Shown here: positions 2,853 to 7,660 of the stretch, in pieces
Position numbering within the stretch: position 1 is the first letter of the stretch
Layout of the letters: each line of letters opens with the position of its first letter
The notes under the pieces: model-generated
Seen by the model: the letters and a program-made list of their open reading frames with translations, nothing else
What the model was told of the DNA's origin: nothing
Database searches by the model: none
Origin: a virus
Direction: 5' to 3' (one strand)
UHGV virus genome: UHGV-0175179
Length of the DNA: 29,565 nt
Translations under genes and position numbers: made by a program

Positions 2853-3836
2853 ATGATTCGATCTCTCGTTAAATGGCCCGGTGGTAAAGGCCGCGTTATG
2901 CCTGATTTGCTGCCGATTCTGCCGAAAGCCGATTGCCTGGTGGAACCGTTTGTCGGCGGTGCTTCTGTTTTCCTCAATACTGAATATCGCCGTTATATCC
3001 TGGGTGATATAAACCCAGATTTAATTAACCTGTATCGCCAGATAGCCCGCTGGCCTGATGTGGTGATCGACGCTGCTCGCCCGCTGTTTAAAGTGTACGG
3101 TGATAAAGACGGCTATAAGTGGATCCGCGACGATTTCAACGCTCGCGCCCATGACCTTCTTTCATCGCGCAATGTGTTTGAGGACGGACCGGACGCGGGC
3201 AAGATTCTTCGTGCAGCACAGTTTCTTTACCTGAACCGTCACGGATATAACGGCGTAGTGCGCTACAACCAACAGGGCGGATATAACGTTCCCTTTGGTA
3301 GACACAAAACCCCGCCTTACTTCCCGGAAGAACAGATCCGTTTATTCTCTGAAAAAGCTAACGACACGAAAGCTATTTTCGTGTGCTGCGATTTCCAGAG
3401 CACGTTAAAAATCACGATTGGTAGTGACGCGGTTATCTACTGCGATCCGCCATACCTGCCAACAAGCGAAACCGCTAATTTCACCCAATACCACACCGCC
3501 CCGTTTGGGATTAAAGAGCATCGCCAGTTAGCTGCCGCCCTGCTGGATATTAACCGCCTTACTGGTTCGCCGGTGATCCTGTCCAACAGCGACACCCCTG
3601 CTACCCGCGAGATTTATCACACTTTCAACTTCCAGGAAATCAGCGTTAACCGTTCTGTCAGCGCGAACGCCATTACCAGAGGGGTCGCCAGTGAAGTGAT
3701 TGGCGTCCTGAAAGTGTGCAGCGGCTGCGGTCGTGCCGATGGTGGCCGTTGTCCTGACTGCGGCCCGGTAATGGGTGACGCGACCTACAACGAAATGCTG
3801 GCATCGGCTGCGGCCAATGGCGTGGAGGCTTTTTAA
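2853..3836 (+). CDS. dam: DNA adenine methyltransferase, Dam family, with a C-terminal Cys4 zinc-ribbon extension
   Basis: KWPGGK and LVEPFVGGASVFLNTEYRRYILGDINPDLINLY are near-identical in pattern to E. coli Dam (KWAGGK, LVEPFVGAGSVFLNTDF..YILADINSDLISLY). DPPY catalytic motif present (IYCDPPYLPT). The C-terminal ~45 aa add CSGCGRADGGRCPDCG. GGAGA RBS 8 nt upstream. Confidence 0.9.
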   Translation: MIRSLVKWPGGKGRVMPDLLPILPKADCLVEPFVGGASVFLNTEYRRYILGDINPDLINLYRQIARWPDVVIDAARPLFKVYGDKDGYKWIRDDFNARAHDLLSSRNVFEDGPDAGKILRAAQFLYLNRHGYNGVVRYNQQGGYNVPFGRHKTPPYFPEEQIRLFSEKANDTKAIFVCCDFQSTLKITIGSDAVIYCDPPYLPTSETANFTQYHTAPFGIKEHRQLAAALLDINRLTGSPVILSNSDTPATREIYHTFNFQEISVNRSVSANAITRGVASEVIGVLKVCSGCGRADGGRCPDCGPVMGDATYNEMLASAAANGVEAF

Positions 3837-4036
3837 TGGCAACCCGTATCGATGCAACTCAATCCGAATTTACCCGCGGTGCGCTGGCTGCGCTTAACGA
3901 AGCTAAAACCATTGCGCTTGCCCATGCGACGTTAGCGGGCGTTCTGGCTGGGCCTGACGTGGCTAATACATTGCTGATTTCTTTCAATACGTTATTAGAC
4001 CCGCTAATCGAAAAGCATTCACAACGGGAGGGTTAA
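3836..4036 (+). CDS. Hypothetical small protein (66 aa), translationally coupled between the two methyltransferase genes
   Basis: ATG overlaps the dam stop (TAATG). Ala/Leu-rich, no motif recognised. Confidence 0.4.
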   Translation: MATRIDATQSEFTRGALAALNEAKTIALAHATLAGVLAGPDVANTLLISFNTLLDPLIEKHSQREG

Positions 4037-4038
4037 TC

Positions 4039-5049
4039 GTGGGTGCTTTGGCTTACTACAACGAAATCGATCCATATGCAGCACAGTGGCTGCGCAACCT
4101 CATTGATGCCGGGCATATTGCGCCAGGCATTGTTGATACCCGTTCAATTGAGGATGTAACCCCCAATGACCTTAAAGGCTTTACTCAATGTCACTTCTTT
4201 GCCGGGATCGGTGTGTGGTCATATGCCCTGCGTCTTGTGGGCTGGCCGGACGACAAACCGATCTGGACTGGATCCTGCCCATGCCAGCCTTTCAGCCCGG
4301 CAGGCAAAGCAACTGGGTTTGATGACGAGCGGCACTTATGGCCCGCCTTTCATTGGCTCATTGCTCAGTGCCGCCCTGTCGTTGTCGCTGGCGAGCAATC
4401 TGGAAGCGCTAACGCGAACGTCTGGCTCGACCTTGTACAAACTGACATGGAAAGCCTGGGCTATGCCTTCGGGGCGGTCGCGTTTCCGTCTGCGAGCGTC
4501 GGTGCGCCACACATCCGGGACAGAGCTTACTGGGTGGCCGACACCAACGGCGAGCGCATGGAAACACCCTGGAAATCAGGGGAGGCAGGGAGGCTTGAAT
4601 TTGCAAACGGCCACAGCATTAGCTGGGTGGCCGACACCAACAACACAGAGCAACAACCAAATCTCAGGAGTTGGAGCGGCTGCAGATCACCCGAAGCGCG
4701 GGACAACTTTGGGCGGGGCTGCTCAGCTGTCGGGGTGGCCGACACCAGCTTCAAGGGACGGCAAGGGGGGGTATCAGGGCGGGAGGATGCGCAACGGGAA
4801 GCTGTCGACGGACACGCTGGATGTGACGGCGCAAATTGCGGGACCGGTCCGGTTAACGGTTTCTGGCGATCTGCTGACTGGCTGTATTGCCGGGATGGAA
4901 ACTGGAGGCCAGTTAAACCCGGACTTAAGCCGCTGGTTGATGGGGTTACCGGACGAGTGGGAAAAATCCGCGCCTACGGAAACGCTATCAACGTTGAAGC
5001 TGCAACAGCGTTCATAAAGGCTTATATGATGGGGGCGTCAAATGTCTGA
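4039..5049 (+). CDS. DNA cytosine-5 methyltransferase, phage orphan Dcm-like (GTG start); reading frame integrity uncertain
   Basis: Motif I-like FAGIGVW, motif IV PCQPFSPAG, motif VIII-like APHIRDRAYWVA and motif X-like RAYGNAINVEAATAFIKAY in this frame. GGGAGG 7 nt upstream of the GTG. The stop overlaps the gpA start. Confidence 0.8.
   Translation: MGALAYYNEIDPYAAQWLRNLIDAGHIAPGIVDTRSIEDVTPNDLKGFTQCHFFAGIGVWSYALRLVGWPDDKPIWTGSCPCQPFSPAGKATGFDDERHLWPAFHWLIAQCRPVVVAGEQSGSANANVWLDLVQTDMESLGYAFGAVAFPSASVGAPHIRDRAYWVADTNGERMETPWKSGEAGRLEFANGHSISWVADTNNTEQQPNLRSWSGCRSPEARDNFGRGCSAVGVADTSFKGRQGGVSGREDAQREAVDGHAGCDGANCGTGPVNGFWRSADWLYCRDGNWRPVKPGLKPLVDGVTGRVGKIRAYGNAINVEAATAFIKAYMMGASNV
4531..4749 (+). 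repeat. Three direct copies of a ~15-bp motif GGGTGGCCGACACCA inside the Dcm-like gene
   Basis: Copies at 4531-4548, 4623-4641 and 4732-4749, read directly from the sequence. They encode WVADTN / WVADTN / GVADTS in the gene frame and GWPTP three times in the overlapping frame. Confidence 0.8.
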
Positions 5050-7660
5050 CACCGCCTTTGCATGGCCCTGGAACGCGCCGCGCCAAGCTGTTGGCCTGTA
5101 CACCTACGAACCGAAAAAGATCGCCCCGCTTGCCGGGGCGGTGGCGCATCATCCTGCCGTAAAAAAACACATCGATCACATCTTCAAACGCGCCGGTTAC
5201 AACCCCGACGACGTTCGAGACCGTGACGCGCTGATCCAGTCGCTGGACAGGTACGAACCGTGCGGCCTGCCACTGGCCGCCCAACAAAATATCATCCGGC
5301 AGGAAAGTGCAGCCGCCAAAGCTGCGGCGGCTGCCTGGGCCAATACGCCGGAAGGTGTCGAAGCGCGTTTGTTGTCTGAGCCGTTCTTCATCCGCGAAGT
5401 CTGGCGCAAAAAAATTGAATGGTTACGGGCCAACCGTGAAACCAGACACACCAATGATTTTCTTATGGGGACCGTGAAAAAATCATTGCTGCGTCTCGAT
5501 GTTGTGCGCACAAGGCAAGGTGTTTCGCCTGATATCACCGGCGAACTGGCCGCGTACTGGTTCGGGCGCTGGCAACGACTGGCTGATTTCACAAAGCGGG
5601 AAGCACTAAGCGCCGCTAATGAGATCGCCAGCCGCATGACTGAAATGCTGGGGACGGAATGCGAAGCCCTGGGACGGAATGTTTCCGACATGAACGTCGA
5701 AGAACTGGACTGGCTTTATTGCCACATGGGCCGCGAAATGCTGGCGCTTCGTATTGTGCCGCCTGCATGGTATGCGCCGTGGGAACGCGAGCGCATATGC
5801 ACGGCCATTTTGCGTATGGCTTCGCCTGACTGGTGGGGGCGCAAAATCTGGCGCCTGCGTTGTGACTGGCGCGAAAACCAGCTGCGTGCTGTTGGCGCGG
5901 TAAATAAAAAAGCGCATCCGTATATTAGCGCATCAAGCCTGATGGAATGGCAGGAACAGCGACGTAAAAACCGTAATTTCTTCAAAAGTCATGAACTGGT
6001 AGACGAAGACGGCAACGTTTCGTCGCTTGAGGACATGATTAACAAATCCACGTCTAACCCTGCAATTCGTCGTCATGAGCTTATGGCCCGTATGGCTGGT
6101 GTGGAGCTTGTCGCCCAGAGCCGTGGCGATGTTGGCATCTTCCTGACCATCACTTGCCCGTCGAAATATCACGGCAATATTGCGTCCGGCCACCATAACG
6201 CAAAATGGAACTACGACACGGTTGCACAGGCGCAACGCTATTTATGCCGCGTATGGAACCGGGCAACCGCCAAACTGAAACGCGAAGATTTGCGCCCTTA
6301 TGGCTTCCGCGTCGCCGAGCCGCATCACGATGGGACGCCACACTGGCACGCGTTGTTATTTATGCCAAAAGAGCAAGTCAAAGCCACGGTTGCGATACTT
6401 CGCGCCTACTTCATTGCGGAAGACCGCGACGAGCTGGGCCGCAACACCGGTGCTCGCTTCAAGTCCAAAAAAATGGACCCACGGAAAGGGTCAGCAACGG
6501 CATACATCGCCAAATACATTTCGAAGAATATCGACGGTCACGCGCTGGCCGGTGAACTGGACGACGAAAGCGGCAAGCCGCTGAATGAAACAGCCAAATA
6601 TGCAATGGCCTGGGCGTCACTTCACCGCATCCGCCAGTTTCAGCCCATCGGACAGCCGCCCATATCGGTTTACCGCGAGCTGCGCAAACTGAGCAATCAG
6701 ATCACGACCCGCCAGAAAATTGACAATACCTTCAAGCGCGGTGCGCCGTTGCTTGTGGATCCTGCAATGGATGCGGTTTGCGCCGCTGCCGATGTCGGGT
6801 GCTTTGCTACCTACATCATCCGCCAGGGTGGTGTTTTGATCCCGCGTGAAAACTATGTCGTCCGTCTGGCCTATCAGCCAGCTGATGAAATGAATGCTTA
6901 TTGTGAGATCCCCGAAAAGGTTTTCGGGGTCTGGTCGCCGCGTCTGGGTGATGCCTCCCGTATTTGCACCCGTCTGGTTAAGTGGAAAATCCGCGCCAAA
7001 TCCAAAGCTACCACCGAGGCCAAAAACGGCCCCGGTTTGGGGGGTGACCTTTTGCCGTCGCCAACCGGCGACGCTTGGAGTTCTGTCAATAACTCTACGG
7101 AAGCCGAAAAAATCACCGATTTTTCGCCTGATGTGGAGGGGATGACAGAAGAATCAGAAGAGGAAATCGTCGATTTTGAAAACATGGACCAACCGACGCG
7201 GCGCAAATTGATGCGGCGACTACGTGAAACACCATTCAAAAGGCAGCAAAACGGATCACCTTATGAGCCAGGCAGCGAATTAGATGTCGCCTGGCGTTCT
7301 GCCGTGGAAAAAACCGAGGCCAGATCGGCGGCAGAAAAGGCCAGACGGGGGGCGCTTGCTCCTGCGGTTGCCAGCCTGCTAGCAGATGCGGCGTTGTATT
7401 CGGTTGAGATTTCAGAGATTCAGGCCGTTTCGCTGTTAATGGGGAGTTGTCTGGAAATTGGCGGCAAAGTTTATCGGGCCAGTGCTGACGGCCAGTTGAT
7501 AACGCGTCAATTACCCGACGAGTCACGGACGGTGAATAAATTATGGGAACGTCTGCGGGATAACCACGGCATAGATGCCACGCGCCTGCGGTTCGATCCT
7601 GCGGGTGAATACGCAAAGATGTTAACGAAAGCAATTAATTGCGCTGACAAAAAGGGGTGA
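5042..7660 (+). CDS. A: Replication initiation endonuclease, P2 gpA family (HUH rolling-circle initiator)
   Basis: HUH motif HWHALLF and active-site tyrosine motif SATAYIAKYISKNIDG, typical of P2 A-type initiators. 872 aa. Position after the early genes matches P2. Confidence 0.9.
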   Translation: MSDTAFAWPWNAPRQAVGLYTYEPKKIAPLAGAVAHHPAVKKHIDHIFKRAGYNPDDVRDRDALIQSLDRYEPCGLPLAAQQNIIRQESAAAKAAAAAWANTPEGVEARLLSEPFFIREVWRKKIEWLRANRETRHTNDFLMGTVKKSLLRLDVVRTRQGVSPDITGELAAYWFGRWQRLADFTKREALSAANEIASRMTEMLGTECEALGRNVSDMNVEELDWLYCHMGREMLALRIVPPAWYAPWERERICTAILRMASPDWWGRKIWRLRCDWRENQLRAVGAVNKKAHPYISASSLMEWQEQRRKNRNFFKSHELVDEDGNVSSLEDMINKSTSNPAIRRHELMARMAGVELVAQSRGDVGIFLTITCPSKYHGNIASGHHNAKWNYDTVAQAQRYLCRVWNRATAKLKREDLRPYGFRVAEPHHDGTPHWHALLFMPKEQVKATVAILRAYFIAEDRDELGRNTGARFKSKKMDPRKGSATAYIAKYISKNIDGHALAGELDDESGKPLNETAKYAMAWASLHRIRQFQPIGQPPISVYRELRKLSNQITTRQKIDNTFKRGAPLLVDPAMDAVCAAADVGCFATYIIRQGGVLIPRENYVVRLAYQPADEMNAYCEIPEKVFGVWSPRLGDASRICTRLVKWKIRAKSKATTEAKNGPGLGGDLLPSPTGDAWSSVNNSTEAEKITDFSPDVEGMTEESEEEIVDFENMDQPTRRKLMRRLRETPFKRQQNGSPYEPGSELDVAWRSAVEKTEARSAAEKARRGALAPAVASLLADAALYSVEISEIQAVSLLMGSCLEIGGKVYRASADGQLITRQLPDESRTVNKLWERLRDNHGIDATRLRFDPAGEYAKMLTKAINCADKKG

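Follow-up and report, generated by a model that had tools for sequence, protein, structure and literature searches.

Two nested same-strand reading frames of a phage "Dcm" gene probably encode the two chains of a C5 DNA methyltransferase

Introduction

How can the conserved motifs of a single enzyme come to lie in two overlapping reading frames of the same strand, and which of those frames is used? The question is raised by a gene of the virus genome UHGV-0175179, the whole 29,565-nucleotide stretch of which is called the window here. The window belongs to a P2-family (Peduoviridae) phage or prophage and shows ~93% identity to Salmonella phage SI7 across 87% of its first 25 kb. An original prediction, made from the sequence alone, held that the motifs of a C5 DNA methyltransferase (C5-MTase) are divided at the early "Dcm" gene over two overlapping frames, with motifs I, IV, VIII and X in frame 0 and a IX-like segment in the +1 frame, and we find that they are. 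The frame-0 motifs I, IV, VIII and X, the +1 open reading frame (ORF) of 283 codons and a run of five A (A5) at 4962-4966 all lie where they had been placed. We refer to the two ORFs as alpha and beta.

4039-5049, + strand: alpha ORF, the "Dcm" gene of the early region; frame 0, GTG start, 336 amino acids
4166-5017, + strand: beta ORF; +1 frame, ATG start, 283 amino acids, entirely inside alpha

Frame 0 has no stop from 4039 until 5049, and beta takes up 283 of alpha's 336 codons, which is 84% of alpha and an overlap of ~850 nucleotides. Sequence comparison and structure prediction together indicate that this locus probably encodes a C5-MTase of two polypeptides, one from each of the two nested frames.

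Both frames are open in nearly all homologous loci

Two samples of homologous loci were compared with the window. The first consisted of 85 homologues picked through the frame-0 protein (50-83% identity). The second consisted of 80 species genomes from Enterobacterales, Pseudomonas, Burkholderiales, Rhizobiales, Desulfovibrionaceae and others, and because these were picked through the +1 protein the sample is unbiased as to frame 0. We found that frame 0 and frame +1 are both open in 164 of the 165 loci (85/85 in the first sample and 79/80 in the second), over ~300-400 codons in frame 0 and ~250-370 codons in +1. The third frame is open for only ~50 codons and holds ~16 stops. Synonymous shuffling of frame 0 leads one to expect 4.8 stops in +1, and synonymous shuffling of +1 7.8 stops in frame 0. 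When either frame of the window was shuffled, 0 of 200 shuffles left the other frame stop-free (5.0 stops expected in +1 and 6.6 in frame 0).

These counts bear on the possibility that frame 0 alone is functional and that the +1 ORF goes untranslated, as a by-product of constraint on alpha's amino acids and codons or of constraint at the DNA or RNA level. GenBank and RefSeq mostly annotate frame 0 only, and the 58% G+C of the alpha gene lengthens chance ORFs. However, shuffles that keep the alpha protein and its codon usage still give ~5 stops in +1 where 164 of 165 loci have none, and the third frame has the many stops just mentioned. Together with the evidence against it in the following sections, this makes an untranslated +1 frame distinctly improbable. 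Plain coincidence, which had been among the options offered for the two-frame motifs, is excluded by the shuffles along with the codon-phase switches and synonymous-site constraint described below.

An artefact had been proposed as well, in the form of compensating indels or a homopolymer sequencing error. The gene would then be a formerly single-frame one, now a pseudogene. Homopolymers are present in the window (A5 at 4962 and a run of seven G at 4765), and one homologue, locus L097, carries a frame-altering G8-to-G7 change. However, 164 of the 165 homologues, in phages and prophages of all the groups named above and from many genera, have the two-frame layout, and an independent assembly contains a protein (P0271) that is nearly identical. 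This explanation can be set aside with near certainty.

L097 (Klebsiella michiganensis DSM 25444) is the one locus in which the two frames are not both open. It has G7 at 1923-1929, within the first WPTP module (see below), where relatives have G8 (L004:2050-2057, L017:2041-2048, L092:1923-1930). The change fuses the N-terminal domain of alpha in frame to the C-terminal half of beta and moves motif X to the third frame. An error of assembly, a pseudogene or a slipped-strand switch could each account for it. The G7 of the window (4765-4771, GGCAAGGGGGGGTAT) lies in the GKGGYQGG segment of beta, which in frame 0 is the alpha linker, and a single-base change in it would disrupt both frames. About 20 of the 85 homologues carry a 48-nucleotide insertion between the positions of window 4950 and 4951, between the segments coding for motifs IX and X. 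Both frames are open through it, with +1 reading ...LPHAWDESSPGWQEWQAAT... and frame 0 reading ...GRLKGYGNAINA.

Each frame is constrained in its own segments

Per-column nucleotide entropy was computed by codon phase, and the computation was repeated on the independent genome sample. The gene falls into the following segments.

4051-4275: frame-0 pattern, third position 1.2-1.5 and the others 0.2-0.6
4276-4545: variation damped in both phases
4546-4860: position 3 of the +1 frame most variable, frame 0 poorly conserved
4861-4905: variation damped in both phases
4906-4950 (LNPxxSRWLMGLP): +1 pattern, with frame-0 third positions almost frozen (0.28)
4951-5049: frame-0 pattern back

At 4546-4860, and again at 4906-4950, wobble follows the +1 phase, which counts against an untranslated +1 frame.

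A second test measured third-position entropy at the conserved four-fold codons of alpha only.

4051-4275: 1.6 (sample 1), 1.64 (independent sample)
4276-4365: 1.02, 0.83
4366-4545: 0.54, 0.49
4861-4950: 0.46, 0.42
4951-5046: 1.33, 1.33

In sample 1 the drop is significant both for the 4276-4545 stretch (Mann-Whitney, p=7e-6) and for 4861-4950 (p=2e-5). Low entropy at synonymous sites just where beta is conserved marks a second layer of coding, and the result also shows frame 0 to be translated to either side of the middle region. Consistent with this, beta is conserved as strongly as alpha in the dual-coded stretch 4276-4545, and in a second dual-coded stretch, 4852-4950, both translations are conserved at 0.75-0.92; at 4852-4923 of this stretch alpha reads VNGFWRSADWLYCRDGNWRPVKPG, overlapping GPVRLTVSGDLLTG...GGQLNP of beta. 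At 4546-4860 the majority residue of frame 0 reaches a frequency of only 0.17-0.37, yet the frame is uninterrupted in the homologues. By these comparative measures purifying selection is shown to act on both frames, in the segment pattern listed above. The G+C content by codon position within the window was uninformative.

Alpha is a predicted catalytic chain with an unconserved middle

Alpha carries the following motifs.

4198-4218, + strand: motif I, FAGIGVW
4279-4296, + strand: motif IV, PCQPFS
4390-4398, + strand: motif VI-like GEQ, in place of ENV
4504-4539, + strand: motif VIII, APHIRDRAYWVA (HIRDR)
4954-5025, + strand: motif X segment, RVGKIRAYGNAINVEAATAFIKAY (YGNAI), with frame-0 wobble at 4951-5040

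The residues of motifs I, IV, VI, VIII and X are invariant among homologues, and those of I, IV, VI and VIII align to the motifs of M.HhaI. Motif X in frame 0 reads RVGKIRAYGNAI, and its R306, G308, R311, G314, N315 and A316 are invariant. Alpha matches Pfam PF00145 at 47.8 bits (cut-off 22) over residues 75-179, and hhalign aligned it to M.HhaI residues 4-172, motifs I-VIII, at a probability of 98%. It also matches phrog_363, to which PHROGs gives the label DNA methyltransferase. The AlphaFold2 (AF2) model of alpha is confident at residues 1-172 and in a C-terminal helix, 319-334, for which the predicted local distance difference test (pLDDT) is ~89. The top Foldseek matches of the large domain are M.HhaI, M.HaeIII and DNMT2, with E ~2e-7 for the first two.

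Residues 173-275 (4555-4863), which link motif VIII to the C-terminal part, are unconserved and predicted to be disordered, with a pLDDT of ~25. We found no conserved or ordered target-recognition region and no motif IX in alpha's own frame between VIII and X; the IX-like motif occurs in +1 only. Judged by its sequence and predicted structure, alpha consists of a catalytic large domain and of motif X, with an always-open loop, disordered and unconserved, between the two.

Beta carries what alpha lacks

Three regions stand out in beta.

4364-4501, + strand: conserved N-terminal region, LSLASNLEAL...GSTLYKLTWKAWAMPSGRSRFRLRAS, overlapping alpha motifs IV-VIII within the dual-coded 4276-4545
4532-4860, + strand: GWPTP modules, three copies starting at 4532, 4625 and 4733
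4904-4960, + strand: motif IX-like segment, GGQLNPDLSRWLMGLPDEW, with +1 wobble; the most conserved part of beta (0.91)

The IX-like motif of beta is LNPDLSRWLMGLPDEW. The +1 reading also includes GGYQGGR and LSTDTLDVTAQIAGPVR, and beta ends in ...EWEKSAPTETLSTLKLQQRS without a GNxV motif, motif X being in frame 0. The three GWPTP copies had gone unmentioned in the original prediction; read in frame 0, their DNA is the alpha linker. The number of W-x-T-P modules ranges from ~2 to 5 among the 164 homologues. Clustering of the modules was too coarse to define module families, and the count alone was used. The N-terminal region is predicted to form a helix and a hairpin in the model of beta.

The refuting condition set with the original prediction came out divided. 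Homologues do span the 4039 frame from end to end, with a gapped and unconserved middle, and the alternate-frame peptide has significant matches in the thousands. Among clusters formed at 90% identity there are more than 4,630, and among representatives of 50%-identity clusters 10,620 (E<=1e-3). Beta matches phrog_1008 and phrog_31772, both labelled DNA methyltransferase and both PHROGs families separate from that of alpha. The search of beta against PADLOC gave no match, and an exact-sequence look-up of the window's beta found no record.

The middle of the methylase (4546-4860) is a local hot spot of difference between the window and the otherwise 93%-identical SI7, which has one module fewer. 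The module difference could mean a different target specificity.

We then compared these parts with a methylase that has all of them in one frame and one polypeptide, the 450-amino-acid gp6 of Mycobacterium phage prophiFSAT01-1 (BK061308.1). This comparator was reached through a search of a phage collection with a synthetic IX+X consensus, in which no one-frame IX-then-X record appeared for this proteobacterial family and the IX half alone was matched. In gp6 motifs I-VIII are followed by four (L/F/M)PTP modules, by LNPRFSEWMMGWPQDW (LNPxxSxWxMGxPxxW, motif IX) and by GNGVVPQQ (GNxVxP, motif X). A chimera composed of the alpha N-terminus, the beta modules and motif IX, and the alpha C-terminus is colinear with gp6 over two aligned segments (E=9e-5 and E=5e-5). 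The parts follow one another in the same order, and the modules of beta align to the PTP modules that gp6 has in frame. In gp6, however, there is no counterpart of GSTLYKLTWK...LRAS in the beta N-terminus or of FWxxADWLxCRDGKWRPV in alpha. With the chimera as query, a Pfam scan matched PF00145 no further than motifs IV-VIII, and a search of Protein Data Bank (PDB) sequences matched motifs IV-VIII only.

The likeness of the +1 segment to motif IX is borne out by a beta profile, which matches the motif IX region of gp6 at E=2.8e-5; its match to motif IX of M.HhaI is not significant. Since alpha has motifs I-VIII together with X, and beta has the modules and motif IX, beta carries what alpha lacks. 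By alignment the parts of alpha and beta are shown to be complementary and to be colinear with a single-chain relative, which likely shows the ancestral state. That beta is homologous to an in-frame region running from the target-recognition domain (TRD) to motif IX is a further point against an untranslated +1 frame.

A different possibility is that beta is translated but is no methylase subunit, being an independent overprinted phage protein such as a regulator or an anti-defence factor. Alpha alone would then be the methylase. Beta belongs to no Pfam family, is not predicted to fold alone, and has a conserved N-terminal region without a counterpart in single-chain methylases, as might be expected of such a protein. 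However, alpha would then be left without a conserved or ordered target-recognition region and without a motif IX in its own frame. The C-terminal half of beta is homologous and colinear to the TRD-IX part of the single-chain enzyme, and beta always comes with alpha (beta without alpha, 0 of 165 loci). We consider a separate function for beta unlikely, although it is the strongest of the alternatives weighed here.

Beta has a putative internal start that co-varies with a Shine-Dalgarno sequence

Across homologues the opening of the +1 frame falls within the same few codons, and database matches to beta align from their own residue ~5-15. Alpha has a conserved R-S-I-E-D-V, whose Arg-Ser codons read (A/C)GG AGY in 50 of the 85 homologues, giving an (AA)GGAG Shine-Dalgarno sequence. 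Its GGAG lies 8 nucleotides before a +1-frame ATG within the E-D-V codons, formed by D-V, and this ATG is open in 50/50. In 26 homologues, including the window, the E-D-V ATG is missing or is directly followed by a stop, and GGAG is found in 0/26. In these the next ATG, formed by the N-D codons (4166 in the window), would serve as the start instead, with GAGG 12 nucleotides upstream.

4150-4168, + strand: putative beta start of the window; GAGG at 4150-4153, 12-nucleotide spacer, ATG at 4166

The independent sample (78 genomes) gave the same picture, with an open ATG in 44/44 of those having GGAG and GGAG in 0/16 of the others. The internal Shine-Dalgarno sequence and the ATG are shown by this comparison to co-vary, which also tells against frame 0 alone being functional. 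The window's subgroup has a further peculiarity. There TAA comes directly after the +1 ATG of the E-D-V codons (ATG-TAA, 4154-4159), and the usable ATG comes 6 nucleotides on; this start-stop might affect how translation of beta begins.

The co-variation points to independent initiation, which bears on whether the two frames could be joined in one polypeptide by two programmed frameshifts, one of +1 following motif VIII and one of -1 that follows motif IX and falls at the A5 run or close to it. The product would be a conventional enzyme in the order I-VIII, TRD, IX, X, which is the order of the parts along the DNA, and the A5 run at 4962-4966 could in principle permit a P-site -1 slip from AAA to AAA. 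The run had been put forward earlier as a possible slip site.

4962-4966, + strand: A5 run, not conserved

We found that a run of length 5 at this position occurs in 1/85 homologues, the window, and in none of the 84 others. In 65/85 the run is 1-2 long, and the junction mostly reads GAGTGGGACGACTGCGC. As a slip site the A5 is therefore not conserved, and in most homologues a slippery sequence is absent from this position. Frame 0 is, moreover, conserved at 4852-4923, where a double frameshift would read +1 only. It is also open across 4546-4860 in every homologue, which the double frameshift does not require, and for ~120 codons upstream of any site where a shift could occur +1 is conserved and free of stops. 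We judge a double frameshift to be improbable, less likely than a separate function for beta and about as poorly placed as an untranslated +1 frame.

Neighbouring genes and existing annotation

The gene stands in the early region between a Dam methylase and a replication gene.

2853-3836: Dam methylase
3836-4036: 66-codon ORF
5042-7660: P2 GpA-type replication gene

Gene ends are close-packed. The 66-codon ORF has its stop at 4036, 2 nucleotides before the GTG of alpha (region 4034-4041), and the GpA ATG at 5042 overlaps the last codons of alpha (ATGTCTGA). The tight packing at 4034-4041 and 5042-5049 suggests translational coupling along the early operon. The Dam-type N6-adenine methylase has 327 amino acids, of which PF02086 spans residues 8-268 only; the C-terminal ~60 residues hold CSGCGRADGGRCPDCG, a zinc-ribbon extension in appearance.

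GenBank and RefSeq annotate frame 0 as the sole gene here in SI7, SEN5, ESSI2_ev129 and the Klebsiella phage-plasmid CP052639. In phage K1G both nested ORFs are annotated (L165:1008-1832 and 1096-1788), as "putative C-specific methylase" and "putative Mte8-like protein" (ORF30). "Mte8-like" is an annotation label only, for which a literature search gave no functional description. In phage K1ind2 (L166:906-1835 and 994-1791) RefSeq labels both nested ORFs "DNA methyltransferase", the nested one being gp33.

Discussion

How might such a locus work? We propose that alpha would supply the S-adenosylmethionine (AdoMet)-binding and catalytic large domain, with motifs I-VIII at its N-terminus and motif X at its C-terminus. 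The two halves would be joined by ~100 residues that are the frame-0 reading of the beta coding sequence, stop-free and otherwise unconserved. As alpha would be translated straight through, this linker must stay open though its sequence is free to vary. Beta would initiate at its own internal ribosome-binding site and would supply the variable WPTP target-recognition modules and motif IX. Its conserved N-terminal segment, which lies over alpha motifs VI-VIII, may anchor beta to alpha; we infer this role for a segment that has no counterpart in the single-chain enzyme, in parallel with the beta N-terminus of M.EcoHK31I. The two chains would assemble into an active enzyme that methylates phage and host DNA, and we infer that both proteins are made, are associated and are both needed for activity. 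The neighbouring orphan Dam gene fits an anti-restriction or epigenetic role.

Several observations weigh against this proposal. Support for the translation of beta, for its association with alpha and for methylation is comparative and structure-predictive in kind. Beta had no Pfam or NCBIfam match, and a beta profile matched nothing among PDB sequences at E<=10. AF2 does not predict beta alone to fold (pLDDT 31), and the best local match of the beta profile to M.HhaI by hhalign, to motif IX (273-291), was not significant. The first ~37 codons of beta show no amino-acid constraint, which makes its true start uncertain, and the Shine-Dalgarno-like GAGG of the window is weak and lies 12 nucleotides from the ATG at 4166. 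Alpha is conserved at 4852-4923, a segment to which the proposal gives no role. The likeness to M.EcoHK31I, finally, is drawn from published descriptions and not from sequence. Weighing these points, a nested two-polypeptide C5-MTase as in M.EcoHK31I, but with the target-recognition modules in beta, seems to us the best explanation of the sequence evidence.

We lean, with less assurance, towards a broader view of this family. This phage "orphan Dcm" family is very large; N15 gene 58, epsilon15 and the K1G-type phages belong to it, as do P2-like prophages and phages that infect Pseudomonas, Burkholderia, Rhodobacter and Xanthomonas. It would also be an old family, and its ~850-nucleotide overlap would be among the longest conserved same-strand dual-coding regions known in prokaryotic viruses. 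The alpha loop would be a passively translated hitch-hiker constrained only against stops. Beta would be a detachable specificity subunit, whose WPTP modules could be gained, lost and shuffled to change or multiply targets.

If beta is the subunit for specificity and motif IX, thousands of "DNA cytosine methyltransferase" entries are incomplete, holding half of an enzyme. Beta would be lost if alpha were cloned by itself or codon-optimised. Such loss could account for constructs without activity and for the absence of known specificities for a phage methylase as common as this one. With a recognition subunit that is modular and detachable, a phage could vary the specificity of its methylation economically in the face of restriction systems. 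In bacteria and phages, long overlaps between genes on one strand are rare, and they are disputed. The comparative evidence here is unusually clear, and the case shows interleaved segments of single and dual constraint, a linker selected only for openness and a relative with all parts in a single frame.

Comparison with known systems

In the literature covered, with REBASE and most subscription journals outside its scope, we found no description of nested phage C5-MTase genes as a two-subunit enzyme. Tandem recognition modules have a precedent in the Bacillus phage C5-MTases SPR, phi3T and rho11s, which are multispecific single polypeptides whose variable recognition modules stand in tandem in the span from motif VIII to motif IX. 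The likeness drawn here is that of tandem variable modules, ~2-5 in number among the homologues, and not of a separate target for each WPTP module.

Natural heterodimeric C5-MTases are described as exceptions in PMC3404938, with M.AquI and M.EcoHK31I as examples. M.AquI (CYCGRG) is, by the account given there, a two-subunit enzyme split within the variable region. The beta subunit of M.AquI, as so described, consists of the distal variable region with motifs IX and X, whereas here motif X is in the alpha frame, and here the beta gene lies inside alpha instead of after it.

M.EcoHK31I (YGGCCR) is a two-polypeptide C5-MTase (Lee, Kam & Shaw 1995, as described in PMC2836561 and PMC3404938). According to the description in PMC2836561 both of its chains are required for activity, and N-terminal residues of its beta are needed for association. 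As in the locus analysed here, its beta lies wholly inside the alpha gene in another frame, with motifs I-VIII and X in alpha and motif IX in beta, as far as those descriptions go. They place its predicted target-recognition domain in alpha, whereas here the variable WPTP modules are in beta. Two further differences are that here the overlap amounts to 84% of alpha and that alpha keeps a non-functional read-through loop. The setting also differs: M.EcoHK31I belongs to a restriction-modification system, whereas the gene described here is an orphan phage gene, very widespread, that stands beside Dam and a replication gene.

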